12,359 nt of DNA from an uncultured bacterium (GTDB lineage: Bacteria > Zixibacteria > MSB-5A5 > UBA10806), in contig CBEUCH010000031.1 of assembly GCA_965541585.1 (NCBI GenBank), positions 1-12,359 on the forward strand, given 5' to 3'. Of this stretch, positions 1 through 12,347 are shown in pieces (position 1 is the first letter of the stretch; each line of letters starts with the position of its first letter). The notes beneath the pieces are model-generated. The model was not told the origin of the DNA. It did not search any database and saw nothing but the letters and a program-made list of their open reading frames with translations. The position numbers and the translations under genes were made by a program.

Positions 1-3000
1 CGTCGCTGATAGCCAGCGTTGAGAATGGCCTCCGGGCGATTAGGGCCGACGAGGTCTGGGCCATGGGTTATACCGGCGCCGGACGGCTCGTCAGCCATCT
101 CGATACAGGCGTCGACGGTAATCACCCGGCGTTGAGCAATCGCTGGAGAGGTCTCGATTCCCGTTATGCCGACAATCCCGAATGGGCCTGGTTCGATCCC
201 GTAACTAATACCCAGTTTCCGTTTGATGCCGGTTCGCACGGAACTCATACCATGGGGACCATTTGTGGTCTTGGTGAGGGCACCGGCGATACCATTGGCG
301 TCGCTTTCGGTGCAGAGTGGATCTCCGCCGGTGTGATAGATAGAGTCTCGATTCCTCGCACAGTTGCAGATGCAATACTATCGTTTGAATGGATTGCAGA
401 TCCTGACGATGATCCCTCAACTGTCTGGGACGTTCCTGATTGCAACTCCAACTCCTGGGGTGTGGGGACCTTCCATGGCTACGAACATTGCGATCCGATA
501 TTCTGGGATGTTCTCGACGGTTGCGAGGCCGCCGGCGTATTCGTGGTCTTTGCAGCAGGTAATGAGGGACCCGGAGCGCGCACTTTAAGGAATCCTGCTA
601 CCAGGGCGTCAACCGATCTTCAAAGTTTTGCAATCGGTGCCCTCAATGGCAACGATCCTAACCTGCCGATTGCAGGTTTCTCGTCTCGCGGGCCAACGGA
701 GTGCACGCCCGACGAAACCGATACCATCAAGCCTGAGGTTTCGGCTCCCGGCGTAAATGTCAGAAGCTCCGTTCCCGGCGGCGGCTACGCCGGCGGCTGG
801 AGCGGGACTTCCATGGCCTGCCCGCACGTGGCCGGCGTTGTAGCGCTCATGAGAGAAGCCAATCCCAATCTTAGTACCGATCAGATAGGCGAGATCATGC
901 TGGAAACGGCTGCGGATCTCGGCCAGGAAGGCGAGGATAACGCTTACGGCATGGGTATCGTCGATGCCTACGAAGCCGTGACCATGGCCTTAGCCTATCT
1001 CGAGGGCTGGGGAACGTTGGCTGGCTATATTACTGACCAGGCCTCCGGAGATCCTATCCAGGGCGCTACTGTCAGCGTGATCGATCGTCCCTGGAGCGCC
1101 ACCTCCAATGGCATCGGTTATTACAGGGTTTTCATGCCTGCAGACACCCTCTGGGATATCAGGGTTGATAATTCACCGACCCACCTGCCTGTATTCGACC
1201 AGCAGATGGTTGCGGAAAGCGAAACTCTGTGGGTCGATTACGCACTTGAGGGTAAAGTTACCGTCACTCTCATGGCATCATTCGCCAACCCGGAGGATGC
1301 TTCATATCGAGCCTTCTATCTCAAGGGTAGCTGGGACAACGATGGCTTCTATGATGCCGGCTGGTCCGGTGATTACATTGCCGTCTATGACGATGGCGTG
1401 GCGCCGGATGAAACTGCTGAAGACGGTGTTTATACCGGTACCGTCATGCTCGCCCGCGATCAGGCTAATACCTATAGCTGGGCAATATACAGTGAGACTT
1501 ACGGCGACGAAGATGCCCGTCTCGATGACGGTGCCGATTTCGATATTCCCGATCTGAACCCGCCGGATGTGGCCACGTTGGTCGTCGATCCGTCCGGTTC
1601 CGATAACAACTGGGTCATCTCGGTGGAAGGCGATAACGGCCTCTCGCTCGATCTGGTGCAGGGCATCGATAACACCCCCACCAAATGGGGAGCGGCTGTG
1701 GCGCTGGATGAAGGAATCACCTATACATTCCGGTTCCATGTCATGCATTCCGACGTTGCCAGCTACGGCTCCGGCGGGATAGGCGGCGCTGATCTGTCAT
1801 ATACGCCGACGGTAGACGGTTCCTACGATTTCATATTCAATGACGCGGACGACAGCTACATAGTGCAGTTGACCGGCACGGAGGGTCCGCCTACATATCT
1901 TTCAGCTCAGTCCGGACTTGATGGACATATACCGGTTGGCTGGTTGCCTCCCGGCACCGTTGAATCACAGGAGATGGCATACGATGACGGCCAGTTGGAG
2001 AATGGCTACTACTACTTCGCCTATGAAAATCTGATGGCTACTATGTTCGTTCCTGAGAGCCATCCCGTTACGATTGACTCGGTCAAGGTTCACGTCCTGA
2101 CCGAGGGCGATCCGTTCTGGCCATGGCCGGACGGTACCCACGATCCCGTAGGCGTCTCGATTTTCCTGGATAACGGTTCAGGTTCCCCTGAAAACGATCC
2201 TGTTTTCTACGAAGAAGTCGTCTGCACTCCCGGAGAATGGATCAGGGTCGATGTTGATGAAATATTGGTGGCTCAGGGTAACTTCTGGGTTGCCATGAAC
2301 AATCTGGAGGGAGGCGGCGAGGATGGTATGGGCCTGGATGCCAATACCGATTATCCCGCCAACAAATGGGCTCGCGAAGACGGCGTTTGGGGTATGCAAA
2401 ATCTATATAACGGCGACCACATGATTCGAGCCATGGTCTTCGGTGGTGGAAGATTGGCCTGGATGGGTTACGATTCTTCACCCGCTGGGGAAGTTGCGGG
2501 CAATACCCCTGTGTTTACAAACCCTGAGGGGACAGCAGGTCTCTCTAGTCCAATCGGAGTCAAAGCCGCCACTGATATGCGGCAGCCGATCGAGCTGATG
2601 GCCTACCATCCAAACGTCTCGCCCACGCATCCGCCGGTGGGATTGGATATTCAGGTTCTGGCGGGGTACAACTTATATCGCGATACCTCTCCCGCACCTT
2701 ACGATCGGAGTTTGCAAATAAACGCTGAGCTAATCACCGAAACCAGCTATGATGATTGGGGCGACGATCCTTACGGCCCAATCGTCAATGGCATAACCTA
2801 TTACTACCAGGGGTCGGCCGTTTACGATATAGGCGGCGGCGAGTTTGTCGAGGTTGGGCCGTCAAATGAAGCAACAGGAATGGCCGAGAATCATCCTCCG
2901 GCCAATCCCCAAAATCTCGTTGGTTCTTCGCTCGCCGATACCGTGTATCTATCATGGGATACCAACACAGATTACGATATAGCTCAATACAGAATCTTCA

Positions 3001-6000
3001 GACGGGATTACGGCGAACAGGAATACAACCTGGTCGGAACTGTGGATCATCCGACGACGGACTACAGTGAGATTATCACGCTCGACGGGATCTACAGGTA
3101 CAGAGTAGCCGCCGTGGATGCCGAAGATATGCAATCTTCAGGTTATTCTAACCATGTCGATGTTGCTATTGGAGCCATTCCACCGCGGCAATTAACCGCC
3201 ACCACCGATCTGGAGTTCCAGATCAGGTGTGATTGGCGGCATCCGGGAGGACGGCCTCTGGTACCGAACATGACCGTGCTTGTCATAGCGGCCGACGACG
3301 CCAACATGTTCATGAGTGAGCTTGCCGGATTTGAAGACGTTGAGCAGGCCGATTATTTCGATGCCAGAAACGGCACGCCCTCCCTTGAACAGCTATCCGA
3401 CTATAACATAGTTGTCGTCTGGTCGAATTATCAGTTCAGCGATCCAGTGGGCATGGGGAATGTCCTGGCCGATTATGTCGATGAAGGCGGCGGTGTTGTT
3501 ATGCAGCAGTTCTCCTTCGGCGCCGGATGGAATATACAGGGCCGTCTCATGGATGAATATTCGCCCTTCAATGCGGGGCCAATTCAATACACGAACCATG
3601 ACATTGGCGATTACGATGCTTCTCACCCGATCATGGATGACGTCGGTCCCATAAATGGATTCTATATGTCCAGCGTCTCCATTGTAAATGATGGCGAGTG
3701 GGTGGCGTCCTGGGCTGACGGAACTCCGTTTGTCGCTTACAATCCGGAAGTTAATGTGGTTGGGGTCAACGGATACATCGGCGATGCCCGCCAGTTCACA
3801 GGCGATATGATCGTTCTGGTGCATAACGCCATGAACTATGCTCTCGGCGGCGCCGAAATAATACCGGACAACTACAGGCTATATAAGAGTGACGATCCCT
3901 CGGGACCGTTCAACGTTCTGGTCGAGTTGCCGGGGGATGTCAGGACCTATCTGGATACGCCCCTTCCCAATGACTTCGATTACTACTACTTCGTAACGGC
4001 GCTATATGCGGGGCCGGAGGAATCAGATCCCTCTAATGTTGCTAATGGCCGCGGTATGAACTACCCGCCGAACCCACCGGAAGATCTGGCGGCGGTGGTG
4101 GACAACCGCGACATAAACTTGACCTGGACTTTCGATGACTTCATTGGTGATTTTGATCACTTTAACATCTACAAGAAAATTGTGCCGGGTGGGGATTTCG
4201 AGCTCGACGGGTCATCGTTCGAGACCAGTTACGTAATAACGATTCCGGACGGCGAAGACGGTACCTACGCCGTCGTGGTAACGGCTGTCGACGATGGCGA
4301 TCCAGAGTTGGAGTCCGATTACTCCAATCAGGCTTTCGCCCCCGTCGGTAATCTGCCTCCTATCAATCTGAGGGCGACTTCCGATCAGGACGAGGTCGTT
4401 CCGCTTGATTGGAGTGAGCCCGGCTTAAGGCCCACCACGACCATCATATATGATGATGGAGTACTGGCTAACGGGTATTACTACTTTGCATACGAAAACA
4501 TAATGGCCAATCGATTCGTTGGCTCATCGCCGGTGGAGGTTGAAACTCTCTGGGTGCACGTGCTTACCGAGGGTGACGAGTACTGGCCGTGGCCGGACGG
4601 CAATCACGATCCAGTGGGTATCTCCTTATGGGATGACAACGGCTCCGGCATGCCCGGCGACCAGGTCTATTACACCGAGGTCGTATGCGTGCAGGGCGAG
4701 TGGATAATTGTCCCGATCGAAGGCGGCATTTCTCTCGACGGCCCTAACTTCTGGATCGGATTACAAAATCTCGAAGGCGGTGGCGAGGATGGAATGGGCA
4801 TCGATTCCTTTACCGACTTCCCGGAACATAAATGGGCCCTGGAATCAGGCGTCTGGGGGATGCAGGATCTCTACACCGGCGATCATATGATCCGGGCCAC
4901 CATCATAGATAGTGGTCGACGGCTGCTGCTCAGTGAAAATGCGCCAACCGTGAAGCTTGCATTGCAGGCGGAAACCGGTGAGATTGCCGGTTCCGCAGTT
5001 CTACCGCAAGTAGCGTTGGGAGCCGCGGATGTCAAGAGCGATGCAGTTCCGTTATCGGTCTCCGGGGCAAAGACAGCGTCACTGGCGCTTTTCTCCGGGG
5101 ACGGCATTTCTGAGACGCTCGATATCCTCACATTGTTGGGCTATAACGTGTATCGCTCGGAAACGGCCGGCGTTCCCACTGATCCGGAACATCTGGTGAA
5201 TGATGATTATGTCACCGATTCTGCTTATGATGATACCACGGTGGTCAACGGCACGACCTACTACTACGTGGTAACGGCCGTATACGACAATGAAGGTGAG
5301 ATTGAAGAATCGCCGCCTTCCAACGAGGTTGACGCCACTCCGCTTATGGGTGCCATGATGGTTCTCGATCCGACTTCGTTCACGGTTTCAGGGGCCCCTG
5401 GCGAGATCGTCACAGAGAACCTCAATATTGCTAATCCCGGCGGTCTCGATCTTAGCTTTAGCATAGTGGCTGAAACTGATGACCGCAGGCGTTCGAATCC
5501 TGGTGGAGACATCCCCGATTGGACTTTCGAAGCCAGATTCGCCAGTTACTCCGGTGAATTCGATAAATCCGAGGACTCGGACGAGGGAACCAATCCACCC
5601 GTCATTCTCGATAGAGGAGGTCCGGACGAGTTCGGATACATCTGGGTCGATTCCGATGAACCCGGTGGACCGGCATACCAATGGGCCGACATTGTTGATC
5701 GCGGAAATCAGCTCTATATGTCCGATGACGATAACCAGGGACCCTTCCAGCTTGACTTTAATTTCCCATTCTATGGCAATATGTTCAGCAGCTTCAGGGT
5801 CTGTTCCAACGGTTGGATCTCGTTTACCAGCACCAATGGGAACTACTTTAATGAGCCGATTCCGGATCCTAATGTAATGGAAAACCTGATAGCGCCCTTC
5901 TGGGATGATTTCAATCCATCCGTGGGTGGCGAAGTCTGGGTCTATACAAATCAGGATTCCGCGGTCGTTTCCTGGATAAATGTCCCGCATTATGGTAGCG

Positions 6001-6683
6001 GTGGACCGTATACCGTGCAGGTGGTTCTAACCTCATCAGGAAGGATATATTTTAATTATCTCGATATCAATTCTCCTGATAATTCAGCCACAATCGGTAT
6101 CCAGAACGGCAATGGCACCATCGGTCTCCAGGTCGCTTTCGACCAGACGTATGTCCATAACGAACTCACTGTCATGATAACCACCGGCTGGCTCTCCGCT
6201 GAACCGAGTGCGGGTATAGTAGGAGCAGGCAGTGATATGGATGTCAATATCCTATTCGACGCCACCATCATGGACGAAGGCACTTACACCGGCCAGTTGA
6301 TAGTCACGGGTTACGATATCAACCACATGGTCGATGAGATCATCATTCCCTGCATCTTTATCGTCAGTCGGACGGCAGTCGATGGAGAGGAGATCGATCT
6401 TCCGACGGAATTCGCTCTCTCGCAGAACTATCCGAATCCGTTCAATCCTGCCACCGAGATCAAATTCGCGCTTCCTGAAAACGCGCATGTGAAGATCGAA
6501 ATCTTCAATGTGCTCGGGCAGAAGGTGCGGACGCTGGTCGATACCGATATGGATGCCGGATATCAATCCGTAACTTGGAACGGTACTGACGGTAGCGGAC
6601 AGAGCGTTTCTACCGGAGTGTACCTGTACAGGATGCAGGCCGGAGATAAGATGTTCACCAAGAAGATGTTGATGCTGAAGTAA
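1..6683 (+). CDS. Giant multidomain S8 (subtilisin/bacillopeptidase F-like) serine peptidase with CarboxypepD_reg-like, FN3, GATase-like, NIDO-like and C-terminal FlgD-Ig/T9SS type A-like domains; 5'-truncated
   Basis: Frame is open from nt 3 (SLIASVENGLRAIRADEVWA) into the ORF-track Met at 63, so the true start, signal peptide and propeptide lie upstream of the window. Intact triad: DTG (Asp 102-104), HGTHTMG (His 237-239), GTSMACP (Ser 810-812), plus oxyanion AAGNEG (Asn 561-563). WRG..WFDPV and NSWG motifs are typical of Bpr-like S8. Stop TAA 6681-6683. Confidence 0.95.
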   Translation, partial: SLIASVENGLRAIRADEVWAMGYTGAGRLVSHLDTGVDGNHPALSNRWRGLDSRYADNPEWAWFDPVTNTQFPFDAGSHGTHTMGTICGLGEGTGDTIGVAFGAEWISAGVIDRVSIPRTVADAILSFEWIADPDDDPSTVWDVPDCNSNSWGVGTFHGYEHCDPIFWDVLDGCEAAGVFVVFAAGNEGPGARTLRNPATRASTDLQSFAIGALNGNDPNLPIAGFSSRGPTECTPDETDTIKPEVSAPGVNVRSSVPGGGYAGGWSGTSMACPHVAGVVALMREANPNLSTDQIGEIMLETAADLGQEGEDNAYGMGIVDAYEAVTMALAYLEGWGTLAGYITDQASGDPIQGATVSVIDRPWSATSNGIGYYRVFMPADTLWDIRVDNSPTHLPVFDQQMVAESETLWVDYALEGKVTVTLMASFANPEDASYRAFYLKGSWDNDGFYDAGWSGDYIAVYDDGVAPDETAEDGVYTGTVMLARDQANTYSWAIYSETYGDEDARLDDGADFDIPDLNPPDVATLVVDPSGSDNNWVISVEGDNGLSLDLVQGIDNTPTKWGAAVALDEGITYTFRFHVMHSDVASYGSGGIGGADLSYTPTVDGSYDFIFNDADDSYIVQLTGTEGPPTYLSAQSGLDGHIPVGWLPPGTVESQEMAYDDGQLENGYYYFAYENLMATMFVPESHPVTIDSVKVHVLTEGDPFWPWPDGTHDPVGVSIFLDNGSGSPENDPVFYEEVVCTPGEWIRVDVDEILVAQGNFWVAMNNLEGGGEDGMGLDANTDYPANKWAREDGVWGMQNLYNGDHMIRAMVFGGGRLAWMGYDSSPAGEVAGNTPVFTNPEGTAGLSSPIGVKAATDMRQPIELMAYHPNVSPTHPPVGLDIQVLAGYNLYRDTSPAPYDRSLQINAELITETSYDDWGDDPYGPIVNGITYYYQGSAVYDIGGGEFVEVGPSNEATGMAENHPPANPQNLVGSSLADTVYLSWDTNTDYDIAQYRIFRRDYGEQEYNLVGTVDHPTTDYSEIITLDGIYRYRVAAVDAEDMQSSGYSNHVDVAIGAIPPRQLTATTDLEFQIRCDWRHPGGRPLVPNMTVLVIAADDANMFMSELAGFEDVEQADYFDARNGTPSLEQLSDYNIVVVWSNYQFSDPVGMGNVLADYVDEGGGVVMQQFSFGAGWNIQGRLMDEYSPFNAGPIQYTNHDIGDYDASHPIMDDVGPINGFYMSSVSIVNDGEWVASWADGTPFVAYNPEVNVVGVNGYIGDARQFTGDMIVLVHNAMNYALGGAEIIPDNYRLYKSDDPSGPFNVLVELPGDVRTYLDTPLPNDFDYYYFVTALYAGPEESDPSNVANGRGMNYPPNPPEDLAAVVDNRDINLTWTFDDFIGDFDHFNIYKKIVPGGDFELDGSSFETSYVITIPDGEDGTYAVVVTAVDDGDPELESDYSNQAFAPVGNLPPINLRATSDQDEVVPLDWSEPGLRPTTTIIYDDGVLANGYYYFAYENIMANRFVGSSPVEVETLWVHVLTEGDEYWPWPDGNHDPVGISLWDDNGSGMPGDQVYYTEVVCVQGEWIIVPIEGGISLDGPNFWIGLQNLEGGGEDGMGIDSFTDFPEHKWALESGVWGMQDLYTGDHMIRATIIDSGRRLLLSENAPTVKLALQAETGEIAGSAVLPQVALGAADVKSDAVPLSVSGAKTASLALFSGDGISETLDILTLLGYNVYRSETAGVPTDPEHLVNDDYVTDSAYDDTTVVNGTTYYYVVTAVYDNEGEIEESPPSNEVDATPLMGAMMVLDPTSFTVSGAPGEIVTENLNIANPGGLDLSFSIVAETDDRRRSNPGGDIPDWTFEARFASYSGEFDKSEDSDEGTNPPVILDRGGPDEFGYIWVDSDEPGGPAYQWADIVDRGNQLYMSDDDNQGPFQLDFNFPFYGNMFSSFRVCSNGWISFTSTNGNYFNEPIPDPNVMENLIAPFWDDFNPSVGGEVWVYTNQDSAVVSWINVPHYGSGGPYTVQVVLTSSGRIYFNYLDINSPDNSATIGIQNGNGTIGLQVAFDQTYVHNELTVMITTGWLSAEPSAGIVGAGSDMDVNILFDATIMDEGTYTGQLIVTGYDINHMVDEIIIPCIFIVSRTAVDGEEIDLPTEFALSQNYPNPFNPATEIKFALPENAHVKIEIFNVLGQKVRTLVDTDMDAGYQSVTWNGTDGSGQSVSTGVYLYRMQAGDKMFTKKMLMLK
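1980..2432 (+). repeat. Internal domain duplication, copy 1 (~151 aa, YDDG...GDHMIRA)
   Basis: Shares NGYYYFAYEN, VHVLTEGD, WPWPDG.HDPVG, GEWI, NFW, NLEGGGEDGMG, GVWGMQ and GDHMIRA with 4449-4898. Confidence 0.9.
4449..4898 (+). repeat. Internal domain duplication, copy 2 (~150 aa, YDDG...GDHMIRA)
   Basis: Near-collinear protein repeat of 1980-2432; synonymous positions have diverged. Confidence 0.9.
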
Positions 6684-6706
6684 ACCTTAAATCAGAACGC
6701 TGATGC

Positions 6707-6739
6707 AATGCCCCCGCTCTCAGGAGCGGGGGCATTTTT
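6707..6739 (+). terminator. Rho-independent terminator after the S8 gene
   Basis: Perfect 13-bp stem AATGCCCCCGCTC / GAGCGGGGGCATT with a TCAG loop, running into TTTTT, 23 nt after the stop. Confidence 0.9.
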
Positions 6740-6974
6740 AATGTAGTTAAATTCAGCGATGATATGGGTAACTTGCTGCCATTGCGAACGAGGTTTCAGG
6801 CAATACAGATAATCTGAACGATCGTCGAATTTCGATGTGAAAGCCTGCCGAACGCCTCTGCATAGGTTGTGAAGCCTCATGCACAAAAAAAATCAGAAAG
6901 GTGGGGAACAACTGTTCTGCTTGATTGTAATTATACTGGAAGCAGGAGGGATGGTGAGGAGGAATATATGGGTC

Positions 6975-6987
6975 TAAAGAGTTGATT
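6975..6987 (-). promoter_or_regulatory. Putative IHF binding site
   Basis: TAAAGAGTTGATT; its reverse complement AATCAACTCTTTA matches WATCAANNNNTTR exactly and lies upstream of the sigma54-like motif. Confidence 0.4.
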
Positions 6988-7059
6988 CGCAAGAGGATAG
7001 GACGATTCTCCCCATATTCCTGATCTGTTGACAGGCGGTCGGCGAGGGCGACATCCGGC

Positions 7060-7075
7060 GGGCATGGCATTTGCT
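7060..7075 (+). promoter_or_regulatory. Putative sigma54 (-24/-12) promoter
   Basis: GGGCAT-GGCAT-TTGCT versus consensus TGGCAC-N5-TTGCW. GG at 7061-7062 and GC at 7073-7074 are exactly 10 nt apart. Predicted +1 is near 7086, about 30 nt before ATG 7117. Confidence 0.55.
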
Positions 7076-7102
7076 GGAATAGGCAGACGAACGTAAGTTT
7101 AC

Positions 7103-7109
7103 AAGGAGG
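7103..7109 (+). promoter_or_regulatory. Shine-Dalgarno site
   Basis: AAGGAGG, 7 nt before ATG 7117. Confidence 0.8.
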
Positions 7110-7116
7110 CAAGCAG

Positions 7117-7494
7117 ATGAAGTGCTTCTATCAAGGCCGACAGAGAGAGTCAGAGGGTATCACCGGCGGCAACGGTTTCGTGAGCTTTGCCATCCCGGAT
7201 ATAGGAATTACCTTTAGAGCGCAATTCAGCGGCACCAAGGATGAATGCGATTATGCGAGTCTCCTTGCACTTCTGGAGTTTGTGGAGTTAAACCCGCATC
7301 TCTTTAAAAACAAGCGGATCGAAGTATTCGGCGATAATTTCAAAATCATCAGCCAGGTCAATCAGAAAATCAGGCCGTCGAAGGAACTCGAGCCATATCT
7401 GAATATGGCGGTTGGATATAAGAGTAAAATACCGTTTATTCTGAAGTGGATTCCCGATTCTGAAAATCTGGCGCAGGATGGCATGCCCGCTTAG
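7117..7494 (+). CDS. RNase HI-fold (RVT_3/'reverse transcriptase-like') protein with degenerate active site
   Basis: Matches the archaeal/Ty3-type RNase HI pattern: T..E.DY.SLL..LE (cf. TNNxAEYxALxxGL), RIEVFGDN..II.QVN (cf. lev.gDSqlvv.qv.g), KWIP.SEN...D (cf. hvpReeNkxAD). Strong RBS and a downstream terminator. Confidence 0.8.
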   Translation: MKCFYQGRQRESEGITGGNGFVSFAIPDIGITFRAQFSGTKDECDYASLLALLEFVELNPHLFKNKRIEVFGDNFKIISQVNQKIRPSKELEPYLNMAVGYKSKIPFILKWIPDSENLAQDGMPA

Positions 7495-7517
7495 AGTGTA
7501 ATTGCTATGATAAAGGC

Positions 7518-7553
7518 GAAAAAGGGGTCGTGTCTGCTACCGGCCCCCTTTTC
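7518..7553 (+). terminator. Probable intrinsic terminator, possibly bidirectional
   Basis: GAAAAAGGGGTCG...CGGCCCCCTTTTC: imperfect GC stem flanked by an A-run and a T-run, 23 nt after the stop at 7494. Confidence 0.65.
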
Positions 7554-7571
7554 TATAAGCTGACATGTTCA

Positions 7572-7600
7572 TTGACAAAATACAAATCCGGCCTTATTTT
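7572..7600 (+). promoter_or_regulatory. Putative sigma70 promoter of the M14 gene
   Basis: TTGACA (7572-7577), 17-nt spacer, TATTTT (7595-7600). Confidence 0.6.
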
Positions 7601-7667
7601 GATTATGTGCAAGAATTGGAACCGATACCCTCTTGTTATCGGTTTTAGGTAGAAAAAGGAGATTTTG

Positions 7668-9935
7668 ATGCGAAGGTACATTTGGCTTCTCTTTGGTGTG
7701 ATAATGATTTGGAGCTTATCGTCCATGGCGGCTACGGAAGAGCGCCCGATGCTTCTCAGGGTCGGTCTTCAGGATAGGGGAGTAGTCGATTTTTTGCATA
7801 AGGGTGGATTCGATATCGCTTATATATCCAGGGGAGATTTTGCAGAGATCGTCGCTGACGATAACGACTATAATAGACTTCAAGCAGCCGGATTGAATCC
7901 GCAGATAATTCACCAGGATCTGGTGGCATTCTATCAATCGCGATTCCCCATTGGCACCGATATGGGGGGATTCCCGACATTATCTGAGGCTCTGGCATTT
8001 ATGGACTCGCTTCATGAACTGTATCCGGATATTACCACTGCTCGAAGTCCCATCGGCTATTCGATCGAGGATAGAGCGATCTGGATGATGAAGATTTCCG
8101 ATAATCCGCAGGATGATGAAGACGAACCCGAATTCTTTATAAATGCACTGATCCACGCCCGGGAGCCGATAGGTCTTGAGTCGTCATTGAGGTTTATGGC
8201 GCACCTTTGCGAAAACTATGGTACCGATCCCGAAATTACCGAACTCGTCGACAACCGCGAATTTTATTTTGTGCCGGTTATCAACCCCGATGGTTACGAA
8301 TATAACCGGCAGACCAATCCCAATGGCGGCGGCATGTGGCGAAAAAACAGAAATGCCACCGGCTATGTCGATCTTAACCGTAACTGGGGATACATGTGGG
8401 GCTATGATGATGACGGCTCCTCACCAGATCCAGGGGACGAAACATACAGGGGCATGGCACCCTTTTCGGAGCCTGAGACCTCATCATTGCGCCAGTTCAT
8501 TAATTCTCGAAATTTCAATCTGATAATGAACTTTCATGCCTATGGAGATATATTGTTATATCCCTGGGGATATCACGATGGCTACACTCCGGATGATGGA
8601 ATATTCCGCGCCTTATCCGATTCGACCTGTGCTGAGAACGGCTACGGGTTCGGCACGCCCTGGGAGCTTTTATACAACACTAACGGCGATGCTACGGACT
8701 GGCAGTACGGCGAGCAGATTGAGAAACCGAAGATATTCGGCTTTGTTTTGGAGGTTGGAAGCGGGTATGACGGTTTCTGGCCCGAACCATCGAGAATCCC
8801 GGAACTCTGGAATGATGTACTACCGGCACTCCTCTATCTCTCCAGGGCAGCTGATAATCCTTATCTTCCCTCGGCTCCTCAGGCGCCGGTGTTAAATCCC
8901 ATCGGCGATGTTTACGCCGACTCGTTCTTCGTCACTTGGGAGTCTTCCGATACGCTGAATCCTGCCGTTGCATTTGAGTTAAAAGAGTTGATTGGTCTTG
9001 AGAGAGTCGAGGATGATTTTGAAGATGGCGTATCGAACTGGGATTTGGGCGGTTTCTATCGCAGCACCATCCGGTCACATTCCGGCTATTATTCTCTTTA
9101 CTCCGGATCGTTCAATAACTATAACGGTTCGGCGATTCTGGCCAATCCCGTATCTGTCGGTGAGGATGAGGTGCTTAGATTCTGGACCTGGTATAATATC
9201 GAACTGGACTACGACTATGCCTATGTTCAGTTGTCAACCGACGGCGGTAGCAGCTTCATAAACCTCGAAGGCAATATTACTACCAATTATAATCCGCACG
9301 GCGGCAACCAGGGCAATGGGATTACCGGCAATTCGGGCGGATGGGTGCTTGCAGAGTTTCCTTTAGACGATTATACCGGTCAATCTGTTATGCTGGGGAT
9401 GAGATACGTTACCGATGGCTGGACTACCCGCGATGGTTTCTTCGCTGACGAATTCTATCCGGTTGAGACATTCGATGAAGAAAATACCCTCGCTTCCGAT
9501 ATCGTCGATACTTTCTACCTGGTCAGTGGTCGCGCGCCCGGGGATTATTATTACCAGGTCCGGGCAGAAGATGCTGAGGGTCAATGGTCGGTTTTTTCCA
9601 ATATGGAAGCAGCCCGTGTCCACCCGCAAACCGGTATCGATGATAACCGATTGCCGGTATCGCTGGCATTGAAGCAAAACTATCCTAATCCGTTTAATCC
9701 TCAAACCGCCATATCATTCTCGATTCCACATCGGGGGTTGGTGGATCTGACCGTATACAATATTCTCGGATCGAAGGTACGGACTCTGGTCAACTCTGAG
9801 GTCGAGGTCGGCGAGCATCTGGTAATATTCGATAGTATAGACGACCATGGCAGCCCGGTGGCTCCTGGAATCTACTTCTATAGACTAAAGACAGAATCTA
9901 TCGCTTTGACTAGGAAAATGGTTCTGATAAAATAA
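7668..9935 (+). CDS. Secreted M14 zinc carboxypeptidase (carboxypeptidase T-like) with FN3 / immune-inhibitor-A MAM-like domain and C-terminal FlgD-Ig/T9SS type A-like tail
   Basis: AAGGAG RBS (7656-7661) favours ATG 7668 over TTG 7665. Signal peptide MRRYIWLLFGVIMIWSLSSMA. M14 motifs IHARE (His 8154), NPDG, WRKNR, VDLNRNW, PFSEPET, NFHAY, TDWQY, LEVG. Then WYNIELDYDYAYVQLSTDGG..GITGNSGGW..RYVTDG (InhA MAM-like) and the NYPNPFNP tail. Confidence 0.93.
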   Translation: MRRYIWLLFGVIMIWSLSSMAATEERPMLLRVGLQDRGVVDFLHKGGFDIAYISRGDFAEIVADDNDYNRLQAAGLNPQIIHQDLVAFYQSRFPIGTDMGGFPTLSEALAFMDSLHELYPDITTARSPIGYSIEDRAIWMMKISDNPQDDEDEPEFFINALIHAREPIGLESSLRFMAHLCENYGTDPEITELVDNREFYFVPVINPDGYEYNRQTNPNGGGMWRKNRNATGYVDLNRNWGYMWGYDDDGSSPDPGDETYRGMAPFSEPETSSLRQFINSRNFNLIMNFHAYGDILLYPWGYHDGYTPDDGIFRALSDSTCAENGYGFGTPWELLYNTNGDATDWQYGEQIEKPKIFGFVLEVGSGYDGFWPEPSRIPELWNDVLPALLYLSRAADNPYLPSAPQAPVLNPIGDVYADSFFVTWESSDTLNPAVAFELKELIGLERVEDDFEDGVSNWDLGGFYRSTIRSHSGYYSLYSGSFNNYNGSAILANPVSVGEDEVLRFWTWYNIELDYDYAYVQLSTDGGSSFINLEGNITTNYNPHGGNQGNGITGNSGGWVLAEFPLDDYTGQSVMLGMRYVTDGWTTRDGFFADEFYPVETFDEENTLASDIVDTFYLVSGRAPGDYYYQVRAEDAEGQWSVFSNMEAARVHPQTGIDDNRLPVSLALKQNYPNPFNPQTAISFSIPHRGLVDLTVYNILGSKVRTLVNSEVEVGEHLVIFDSIDDHGSPVAPGIYFYRLKTESIALTRKMVLIK

Positions 9936-9966
9936 GCCAAAACTCGAAGATTTAGCATCAACAGGA

Positions 9967-10004
9967 CGGGGATCATCTGGAGATGATCCCCGATTCTTTT
10001 CTTT
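9967..10004 (+). terminator. Rho-independent terminator after the M14 gene
   Basis: Perfect inverted repeat CGGGGATCATCT / AGATGATCCCCG (9967-9992) followed by ATTCTTTTCTTT. Confidence 0.85.
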
Positions 10005-10367
10005 ATTAAAGCCGCGATTTATCTTGACAAAACTATGATTTGGCCATTCATTGCGGGTGAGATAATTCGTATTAGCCAAACTGACAACGCACGAGGGAAG
10101 ATATGTTACCTTTTGGTGTGGACATATTTATCTTTTGGACCCTAAGGTGGCCGGATATTTACCGCATGCCTTCTCGATAATTGAAGGTTCAGAGGGTCTT
10201 CGAAATTGTGCTTGCTGTGCGACACTTCGTAACATGCAATATCATGCTTGTTCGCGCGCCCCCCCTTGGCGACTCTTATATCTGCCCAAGACCGGGGACC
10301 CTACATTTAGGGCTCTAAATGTGAATGTTTTGGCGAAATGGAGAAGGCAGGCAAACTGGAGGTATCA

Positions 10368-12347
10368 ATGAAAAAATACGGCATTCTTGATCAGAAGTGT
10401 CACTTGTTCTTTCTGACTAACTTTTTTCGACAGGCGGTCAAAATTATGTTTGGCAGGTTCGCTTATTCCGTCATCTTGTGCACACTGGTGCTCGGGGGCA
10501 GCAGGACGGCCTCGGCGGTATCTTATGGTGTTTCTTGCAACACACAGGAGATTTACGAACAGGATTACCTCAGCTTTTTTGGCTATCTTCCACAGGACGA
10601 TTGCTACAATGGTGATTGTGATGATCCGGAGGTCCGCGATTTGTGGATCCCAGGTCCTAACGATCCAATTAAGTACATTAGGATCTATTTCCATGTTTTC
10701 AGAAACGACGATGGAAGCAACCCGGCAACAACCGAGCCTTATGTAGCGGAGCAAGTTGCGGTTATCAATTCCGCTTTTCTGCCGCACAGAATTCAATTCG
10801 TATATGACATGCGTTTTGTCAATTCCACTGAGTATCGTCACTTGGAAAATCTCGATGAAATCTACGCGATGAGAAGTGCGTACGCATTATATCCACATCT
10901 GCAACTCAACGCTTATGTAACCGATTCCGGCCCCTCCAGAGGCACCCTCCCTTGGGATCAAGTCCGAGATCCACTGGGCAATCAAGGTGGTGCTATATTA
11001 GACGACTCTTATTTTTTCCCGTGGCGTACAACCGTTGCGATACATGAGATAGGACATTGTCTCGGCCTCTGGCATACTCACCACGGTGTTTCAGAGGTTG
11101 AGGAATGCGGTGTATGCTGGGAACGGGCAGATGGCCTCGACTGCGACATAACGGGAGACCTTTGTTGTGACACGCCCCCCACACCTTCTAATGCCTATTG
11201 TAATGATCCCGGGGGGATCGATCCATGCAGTGACACGCGTTGGGGAGACACTGCCCCAGAAAACTACTTGAGCTATGCGATAGGCGAGCCTTGCCGGTCA
11301 GAGTTTACCTCCCAGCAGTCTGGACGCATGCTCTGCTGGTTTAACGATGCGTTAAGGACTTGGGAGGAAGGAACCGGACACTACATTTCCCCCATTTCTT
11401 TCAATGTTTATGCTTACCATCGTGGAGATGTTGTATATAGGACCTTGACCATTACTAACTTGAGTAGCCAAGATATTACATTTGCCTTTAGTTCAAGTCC
11501 TCGCTGGCTCTCATTCGTGCCGTCGAGCGGTATTGTGGACGCAGACGGCGAAATCGATATAGAAATCGGTTTTGATCCGATAAATTATGCTATCGGCCAG
11601 ACATTATCGCATGACGCACAATTGAACACCTCAGATCCTCTAACTCCGCTGGATATAATACCGTGCATCATGTCCATTCTTGATCCCAACGAAGGGCCGC
11701 CTCTTATTGTATTCGATACCGACCCAATCTACCTTACAAAATATGCTTTTGACAATCAAGGTACGTTGATTCAACGCCTGGTATCGAACGATGGTGGCAA
11801 TGTTCTCAACTTCACCTTTACGAACAACCGGTTCTGGATATCCGCTGCTGATCATGGAAGCCTTACAGGCGGGCAGTCTTCGAACGCGCTCATGAAATTC
11901 TTCTCAAGAGATTTGGACATCGGCTACTACACGGGTCAGATCCTTGTCCGTCACAACGAAAGAGGACGTGAAAATCCCTTGGTAGTTCAAGTGAATATGA
12001 CCGTTGTTGACGGTGGTGGGTGGCTGCTTGGCAAAACCAACGAAAATGATCACAAGGCTCTACTTCCCGGTAAGTTAGTTGTTTACCAGAGTTACCCCAA
12101 CCCCTCAAATCCCGCAACCACTATCAGATTCGGCTTGCCGGAGAAATCAAATGTCCACCTGGAAATCTTCGACATCCTGGGCCGGCAGGTTGCCATCTTA
12201 GCAGATAAGCCGATGGAAGCAGGGTATCATGAGATCATCTGGGACAGCAGGAACCGCTCCGGCGGCGAGGTGTCTACGGGCGTTTACTTCTACAGGCTAA
12301 AGGCCGGCGAGTTTAACTCGATAAAAAAGATGCTTATATTGAAATAG
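10368..12347 (+). CDS. Secreted M43 (pappalysin-family) zinc metalloprotease with two BACON/ASH-like Ig domains and C-terminal FlgD-Ig/T9SS type A-like tail
   Basis: HEIGHCLGLWH zinc motif (11043-11075), GD.C.DTPP, NYLSY (Met-turn position) and FT.QQ..RM. Start is uncertain: ATG 10368 has GGAGGT 4 nt upstream, ATG 10446 gives a cleaner signal peptide (MFGRFAYSVILCTLVLGGSRTASA), and the ORF-track start is 10338. Stop TAG 12345-12347. Confidence 0.9.
   Translation: MKKYGILDQKCHLFFLTNFFRQAVKIMFGRFAYSVILCTLVLGGSRTASAVSYGVSCNTQEIYEQDYLSFFGYLPQDDCYNGDCDDPEVRDLWIPGPNDPIKYIRIYFHVFRNDDGSNPATTEPYVAEQVAVINSAFLPHRIQFVYDMRFVNSTEYRHLENLDEIYAMRSAYALYPHLQLNAYVTDSGPSRGTLPWDQVRDPLGNQGGAILDDSYFFPWRTTVAIHEIGHCLGLWHTHHGVSEVEECGVCWERADGLDCDITGDLCCDTPPTPSNAYCNDPGGIDPCSDTRWGDTAPENYLSYAIGEPCRSEFTSQQSGRMLCWFNDALRTWEEGTGHYISPISFNVYAYHRGDVVYRTLTITNLSSQDITFAFSSSPRWLSFVPSSGIVDADGEIDIEIGFDPINYAIGQTLSHDAQLNTSDPLTPLDIIPCIMSILDPNEGPPLIVFDTDPIYLTKYAFDNQGTLIQRLVSNDGGNVLNFTFTNNRFWISAADHGSLTGGQSSNALMKFFSRDLDIGYYTGQILVRHNERGRENPLVVQVNMTVVDGGGWLLGKTNENDHKALLPGKLVVYQSYPNPSNPATTIRFGLPEKSNVHLEIFDILGRQVAILADKPMEAGYHEIIWDSRNRSGGEVSTGVYFYRLKAGEFNSIKKMLILK

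Follow-up and report, generated by a model that had tools for sequence, protein, structure and literature searches.

The window, that is, the whole 12,359-nt stretch of DNA that was analysed, contains an intact ORF of 125 amino acids at 7117..7494 on the plus strand. It lies between the gene of a 2206-aa S8 peptidase on one side and that of a 756-aa M14 peptidase on the other. The three other long ORFs of the window all code for secreted-type peptidases: S8 (63-6683), M14 with a MAM domain (7665-9935) and M43 (10338-12347), with T9SS/FlgD-Ig tails. The S8 peptidase has two apparent internally repeated blocks, recognised by eye at about residues 640-800 and 1470-1620. A hairpin is present 3′ of the M14 gene (9967-9992), and a 400-nt intergenic region (9936-10337) lies 5′ of the M43 gene. 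Pfam and NCBIfam searches of the window yielded no match to a reverse transcriptase, integrase or transposase, as the initial annotation had stated for the surroundings of the short gene. The features are:

6707..6736, plus strand: terminator-like hairpin, 13 pairs and a T run; closes the upstream S8 peptidase gene
6859..6883, plus strand: predicted enhancer TGCA-N5-TRTGAA-N6-TGCA, ~200 nt 5′ of the −24 box; top-scoring site of the genome
6975..6984, strand not assigned: weak match to the IHF core, in the interval from the enhancer to the promoter box; enriched across the family
7061..7074, plus strand: sigma54 −24(GG)/−12(GC) promoter box; present at 71/71 short-paralogue loci
7103..7109, plus strand: ribosome binding site AAGGAGG
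7117..7494, plus strand: short-paralogue RNase HI-fold protein, 125 aa; no acid at the Asp10 position, C-terminal helix absent
7515..7556, plus strand: terminator-like hairpin with A and T runs on either side; −17.7 kcal/mol, z −2.48
7572..7600, plus strand: sigma70-like promoter of the M14 carboxypeptidase gene, 10/12 matches; outside the short-gene unit

The hairpin at 6707..6736 sets the regulatory region of the short gene apart from the S8 peptidase gene. The site at 6975..6984 was compared with the IHF consensus. The initial annotation had assigned an intact frame, a ribosome binding site and its own terminator to the short gene. Frame and binding site are as described. As for the terminator, the hairpin 7515..7556 folds, with 4/200 shuffles folding equally well, but the consensus terminator scan does not list it. 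The hairpin suggests that the short gene may be transcribed monocistronically at this locus. Rfam found nothing but sub-threshold matches in window positions 6650-7700, and these lay on the upstream terminator.

The short protein was modelled by AlphaFold2 with a pLDDT of 91. The model has the five-stranded sheet and the helices A, B and D of type 1 RNase H. Foldseek retrieved the Sulfolobus tokodaii RNase HI (2ehg) at E 2.2e-7, and structure comparison with 3aly gave a Z score of 16.4 with an rmsd of 2.1 over 115 aligned residues. A profile of 142 family sequences found the Sulfolobus RNase HI at E 1.7e-7. The RNase H fold, read initially from the letters alone, is thus confirmed by structure prediction. 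The curated models PF00075, PF13456 and NF041175 did not recognise the protein: it had no Pfam match, and its NCBIfam RNase HI matches were weak, with NF041175 at 17.8 bits (cut-off 140). An alignment with canonical RNase HI of Sulfolobus and of related genomes placed Q6, D45, D73 and D121 at the positions of E. coli D10, E48, D70 and D134 and T40-K41-D42 at the position of the TNN motif, all as in the initial annotation. The first catalytic aspartate at the end of strand 1 is therefore replaced by Q6, and D45 and D73 occupy the Glu48 and Asp70 positions. The C-terminal helix, described before as cut short, is missing: the model has no helix of at least four residues past strand 107-111, with a pLDDT of 94 up to residue 120. 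D121 aligns with Asp134 without the helix that carries the latter, in a terminal stretch (121-125) with a pLDDT of 50.

The columns of 281 distinct family sequences reveal the fate of the active site. According to PMC8900815, Asp10 of E. coli RNase HI ligates both metals. The Asp10 column holds Y in 95 sequences, Q in 46, H in 31, S in 28, G in 15, F in 12 and T in 11. Neither Asp nor Glu occurs among the 271 members with a residue there, and a single family sequence has an acid anywhere at positions 5-7; canonical RNase HI rows have Asp in 14/17. The Glu48 column has E in 198, D in 37 and Q in 26 of the 281 sequences. At Asp70, D occurs in 184 and N in 71 of them; at Asp134, D occurs in 110. 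Invariant or near-invariant residues are found elsewhere: C3, F24, I26, P27, F33, G39, Y46, L49-L53, F55, N59, F63, Q80, N117 and A119. Judged by the states of these four columns, the active site is therefore eroded or erased family-wide, with no fixed new pattern in place, and not rewired. The initial annotation had proposed an uncharacterised family with an active site rewired by Asp-to-Gln and Glu-to-Asp exchanges. The conserved family, its purifying selection, its RNase HI fold and its most likely non-catalytic nature stand; the rewired pattern does not. Gln (46) and Glu-to-Asp (37) are minority states, and the column drift across 281 sequences rules them out as a family signature. Close homologues with a canonical DEDD set, the counter-case raised along with that proposal, were looked for in the Asp10 column and did not appear among the 271 members. 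By these residues, the family most likely lost cleavage and became non-catalytic. Measured on the first catalytic aspartate, its sequences fall outside RNase HI. Descent from the archaeal-type RNase HI lineage, which lacks the basic protrusion, is the best explanation for the fold.

Homologue searches yielded 162 proteins, represented by 61 sequences at 50% identity. Public records sometimes label family members as ribonuclease HI. Two of the 162 bear Zixibacteria names, and Zixibacteria make up most of the top clusters in the ESM Atlas. According to their titles, 71 named loci comprise 41 from Zixibacteria, 22 from uncultured Ignavibacteria/Ignavibacteriales, 6 from unspecified bacteria and one each from Latescibacterota and Acidoferrum. 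The Ignavibacteria rows are mixed among the Zixibacteria in the tree, so we suspect that these titles are depositor labels. In the phylum of the window, the family was present in 150/151 genomes: 118 with two copies, 31 with one, one with three and one with none. The short gene does not stand alone: the genome encodes a second, longer paralogue of 165 aa (C11:7066-7563, L001:1273-1770), and the two genes are part of a larger sigma54 regulon. The long paralogue has a Pro-rich tail where the last helix would be; it was not detected in the families f10, f11 and f14, which have one copy each. Upstream of it lies a gene for a Lys-rich HC2-like protein with a Cys-rich end. A branch with 99% SH-aLRT support separated the family from 12 canonical RNase HI rows, and most short forms clustered in a 94% fork. 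This quick tree had 80 rows after removal of near-duplicates and of rows with fewer than 100 aligned positions; its short and long labels follow protein length, which misplaces a few N-extended or fragmentary rows.

Purifying selection was strong, with a dN/dS of 0.027 in two independent pairs (versus L072 and L073); a third row duplicates the counts of the first, and at greater distance another five pairs had reached saturation. Close relatives keep the Gln codon via synonymous change. The gene is not decayed, as had been stated initially. The short form has a median pI of 6.2, whereas 17/20 long paralogues have a pI of at least 7.9. Prediction of a complex of the short and long forms reached a score of 0.17 versus a mark of 0.32, with no controls folded, and is taken as evidence neither for nor against a complex. 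No relative of the family was found on viral contigs. Longer or fused forms were not seen among 8000 candidates of 245-2000 aa, which is weak evidence. Neither fusion nor adjacency to a reverse transcriptase, integrase or transposase was found, the hallmark of retroelement- or integrase-associated RNases H. Gene neighbours vary: peptidases here, elsewhere holA, a dGTPase-like gene or an ECF sigma factor. The short gene is directly followed by holA at 40/71 loci and directly preceded by a dGTPase-like gene at 19/71, which could hint at a link to DNA metabolism. In this genome, the holA linkage is lost and peptidases adjoin, with the sigma54 promoter kept. Membership in a holA or peptidase operon was rejected as the defining context.

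A separate canonical rnhA, for which the initial annotation had recommended a search, was not found: in the genome, which is 98% complete, PF00075 was without a match and RVT_3 matched the long paralogue only. It encodes RNase HII and RNase HIII, the latter above the TIGR00716 cut-off. Hybrid cleavage is probably performed by RNase HIII. The enzyme of this genome has 220 aa (L003:1456-2118, G000:C8) and lacks the first ~80 model positions; this N-terminally short form appears to be typical of the phylum. RNase HIII (rnhC) was matched in 146/151 genomes, in 139 of them above the cut-off, and a strong canonical-type RNase HI in 15/151 (PF00075 at E<1e-20 or RVT_3 at E<1e-8). All three f9 genomes (L059-L061, G072, G135 and G035) lack RNase HIII; as members of one genus (g30), they count as one event. 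They encode an E. coli-type RNase HI (E ~1e-50) plus two family copies each. Two of their short copies were read and have Gly at both the Asp10 and the Asp70 position. That RNase HIII was lost and a canonical RNase HI gained with both family copies staying speaks for a function of the family other than that of an RNase H.

The sigma54 promoter, suggested as a candidate by the initial annotation, is a constant of the family. The box GG[CT][AG]-N6-TTGC is present within 120 nt upstream at 71/71 short-paralogue loci, compared to 1/203 in eight clusters of neighbouring genes and a mean of 0.36 after shuffling. It is also present upstream of the long paralogue at 20/20 loci, picked among the better-scoring matches listed. 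The promoter remains constant across loci while the gene neighbours change. Alone, the box is uninformative on the genome scale (136 matches). Specificity comes with the enhancer TGCA-N5-TRTGAA-N6-TGCA, which sits about 125-225 nt upstream of the sigma54 box. Its matrix scored above 11 at 33/60 non-redundant short-paralogue promoters and at none in five shuffles. The half-site was present at 48/71 short and 9/19 long promoters; the long paralogue of this genome scored just 6.7 in the enhancer matrix. The exact enhancer had 125 matches in 50/151 genomes versus 2 for the reversed control, unevenly spread over families (3/55 in f3, 0/11 in f7). An IHF-like core was located upstream at 34/71 loci (shuffled mean 5.9, maximum 13). 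The genome contains rpoN and 17 matches to the activator domain. GG/GC box, enhancer, rpoN and activators together define, computationally, a sigma54-dependent unit.

Other genes share this control. We examined 70 enhancer sites: 30 loci from the search output and 40 picked by hand away from known loci of the family and of GGDEF genes, which biases the counts of gene classes below. A sigma54 box followed the enhancer in motif direction at 61/70 sites and in the other direction at 2. Downstream genes encoded GAF-HisKA proteins without ATPase domain (14), GGDEF-degenerate proteins (9), the RNase HI-fold family (8), a ~210-aa family of unknown function (6) and SbnI/SerK-like proteins (4). An EPS sugar transferase, a PEP-CTERM protein, a lipoate-ligase-like protein and an Ig-like protein were single cases, and at 13 sites a structured RNA followed. 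Targets of the EPS and PEP-CTERM type are rare, with one each among the 70 sites in addition to the sugar transferase encoded in this genome. This EPS priming glycosyltransferase gene (G000:C33:2117-3013, L182) is preceded by an enhancer-like site and a sigma54 box; a CpsD-like kinase gene lies upstream of it and two pilin-like genes lie nearby. GAF-HisKA proteins of ~250-280 aa without ATPase domain are encoded behind the same enhancer at L219, L257, L281 and other loci; for the homologue of this genome (G000:C17:36239-37429), no sigma54 box was present in the stretch checked. The ~210-aa protein (G000:C4:115764-116417; L230, L231, L265) has a sigma54 box upstream, an enhancer at six loci and no Pfam or NCBIfam match. 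The SbnI/SerK-like proteins occur behind the enhancer in family f16 (L263, L268, L270, L275).

A candidate for the activator is the AtoC-like protein (G000:C17:47511-48899) that shares an operon with two GAF histidine kinases; a GGDEF-degenerate gene follows the operon, and the region as a whole is G000:C17:46784-52337 (L181). The second-best enhancer of the genome is located directly 3′ of the kinase/activator operon and 5′ of the stand-alone GGDEF-degenerate gene. Among 30 loci of this gene, the C-terminal part of the activator was matched next to it in 28, a sigma54 box was present in 19 (260 nt searched) and an enhancer as well in 17. None of the encoded proteins has a GGDEF motif. Each of 61/61 genomes had one match to the activator at E<=1e-120 (60-69% identity). 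From this adjacency we infer that the AtoC-like protein may be the cognate activator of the enhancer.

The structured RNA is predicted to have ~70 nt and to form a three-way junction that is closed by a stem of 10 bp and carries two hairpins. A C-rich stretch is left unpaired; it is complementary to GGAGG and resembles an anti-Shine-Dalgarno sequence. The RNA was located at:

G000:C5:138974-139042, minus strand: ~70-nt RNA of this genome
L184:3967-4047, minus strand: ~70-nt RNA at locus L184

The RNA core was found in 112/151 genomes, with no control matches. A sigma54 box was located upstream in 90/100 loci, a count that omits eight further loci without the 5′ anchor, and an enhancer half-site in 51/86. 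Compensatory changes were observed in 6/18 consensus pairs. Rfam assigned none of five RNA loci to a family at threshold; two sub-threshold matches were both on L261. The fixed pattern found no core in f7 (0/11), f9 (0/3) and f15 (0/2), where diverged copies may escape it. Hfq had no match in the 98% complete genome; CsrA is present. The predicted three-way-junction RNA is apparently undescribed.

The lost catalytic residue, the retention in 150/151 genomes and the shared sigma54 promoter and enhancer suggest that the RNase HI-fold protein probably works as a regulator and not as a nuclease. Our leading interpretation, held at even odds (about 0.5), is that of a protein-binding, non-catalytic adaptor in a phylum-wide sigma54 programme for surface or lifestyle. 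Metal-dependent cleavage would have been lost before the sampled phylum diversified. The ancestor would then have been duplicated into the long and the short form and recruited into the sigma54 programme. As the operon layout suggests, the two GAF histidine kinases may phosphorylate the single-copy AtoC/NtrC-like activator. Bound to the TGCA/TGAA enhancer and assisted by bending through IHF, the activator would start sigma54-dependent transcription; the motifs are seen in the DNA, and binding is expected from them. The shared motifs predict co-induction of the GGDEF-degenerate protein, the GAF-HisKA protein without ATPase domain, the small RNA and some EPS and PEP-CTERM genes. The RNase HI-fold protein may act as an adaptor or modulator by binding a protein of the circuit, presumably not via the old catalytic cleft but via the conserved segments F-x-I-P-D-x-G-I-x-F-R and L-L-E-F-x-E-x-N-P-x-L-F, which are specific to the family. 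A likely output would be a switch of cell surface, biofilm or lifestyle; PMC3162934 argues that sigma54 is linked to the cell exterior. Against an adaptor speak the acids often kept at Glu48 (198/281) and Asp70 (184/281), the small number of direct EPS targets, the presence of the exact enhancer in only 50/151 genomes, the low enhancer score of the long paralogue of this genome (6.7) and the holA and dGTPase-like neighbours. With about 16 strong sigma54-activator matches in the genome, the pairing of activator and enhancer by adjacency is also less secure.

The protein may instead bind RNA without cleaving it, as a chaperone or effector for the ~70-nt anti-Shine-Dalgarno RNA or for RNA-mRNA duplexes. 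We regard this as a minority option. Its fold derives from a duplex binder, most long paralogues are basic and Hfq is without a match. The RNA is co-regulated in many genomes (112/151, with the box in 90/100 and the half-site in 51/86), its pairing has compensatory support (6/18) and its C-rich stretch could pair with GGAGG. However, the Asn-Asn motif, which contacts the hybrid in RNase HI, is lost from the family. The short form has a median pI below neutrality (6.2), the fixed pattern detected no RNA core in the families f7, f9 and f15, which all keep the protein family, and binding does not follow from co-regulation. An extended version is similarly doubtful: one sigma54 activator would drive two pseudo-RNases HI, a pseudo-diguanylate cyclase, an ATPase-less kinase fragment and the small RNA, with the pseudo-RNase H as partner of the RNA in an organism without detectable Hfq.

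A remaining enzymatic function is less probable. A weak or one-metal nuclease, or a new chemistry, could employ E43-C44-E45-Y46, D73 and N117, which are frequent (E43 in 233/281, E45 in 198, D73 in 184, N117 in 270), and variant type 1 active sites exist (LC9-RNase H1, PDB title). Against this speak the Asp10 column (0/271 acidic, with one sequence having D/E at positions 5-7), Asn in 71 sequences at Asp70 and Asp in only 110/281 at Asp134. In M. smegmatis RnhA, according to PMC5224475, E50Q or D72N abolishes activity.

An accessory subunit for the metabolism of DNA/RNA hybrids is improbable. It would load substrate for the short RNase HIII, which lacks ~80 model positions at its start, or bind R-loops at the replisome, in line with the position of the short gene directly upstream of holA at 40/71 loci. 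Yet the three genomes without RNase HIII retain both copies, and the gene order of this genome dropped the holA linkage and kept the sigma54 promoter. Enhancer-dependent control is unusual for a housekeeping replication factor. Recent decay of rnhA, or an error in sequencing, can practically be dismissed and is refuted by the dN/dS of 0.027, the Gln codon kept through synonymous change, the presence in 150/151 genomes and the conserved promoter architecture.

The two genes form a pair that is unannotated and nearly universal in a candidate phylum. The pair offers an entry to a conserved sigma54 regulon with activator, enhancer, degenerate signalling proteins and a new RNA with predicted structure; its components are accessible to tests in vitro or in E. 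coli, with no need for a culture of the organism. In the open-access literature, we found no description of the family, the enhancer and regulon or the RNA. RNase H pseudo-enzymes and inactive bacterial RNase HI homologues are already known.

The closest known proteins are archaeal-type RNases HI (2ehg/3aly, Halobacterium 4e19, LC11-RNase H1 3u3g; RVT_3 PF13456; NF041175). Fold and topology are alike (Z 15.7-16.4), 47/142 alignment members match RVT_3 at E<=0.1, and Glu48, Asp70 and the W-(I/V)-P..N motif located late in the sequence can often be made out in the family. Unlike these enzymes, the family is without the first catalytic Asp, the Asn-Asn motif and the C-terminal helix, which gives way to a short or Pro-rich tail. 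It forms a separate tree branch and is under sigma54/enhancer control.

Bacillus subtilis NP_390082 (YpdQ) belongs to the Firmicutes 'Group A' RNase HI. The group was described as without nuclease activity and as occurring in genomes with RNase HII and HIII, a three-gene combination that PMC1950709 reports for Firmicutes only. Both cases share an inactive-looking RNase HI homologue beside RNase HII and HIII, and the distribution of RNase HI and HIII in the phylum fits the exclusion and the inactive B. subtilis protein of that account. The exclusion pattern would extend beyond Firmicutes, with f9 as a natural replacement in which dead copies were retained. The likeness is one of description; the present family differs by lineage and is phylum-core, duplicated and tied to an enhancer.

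The PrsK/PrsR/PrsT PEP-CTERM regulon of Proteobacteria, as described in PMC1569441, has a parallel architecture: single-gene units, long upstream regions, an activator motif with a −24/−12 box and a link to EPS. One enhancer site found here precedes a PEP-CTERM gene. The characteristic elements were not found: the TTTACA motif 1 is missing, and the candidate activator, the only protein scored for TIGR02915, reached 390.8 bits, below the cut-off of 502.6, and matched AtoC better. The PrsR enhancer ends in TTTACA and is described at ~63 nt from the promoter, whereas TGCA/TGAA boxes at about 120-240 nt are used here. Unlike in the PrsK/PrsR/PrsT regulon, degenerate enzymes of the cytoplasm and an RNA make up the main targets.
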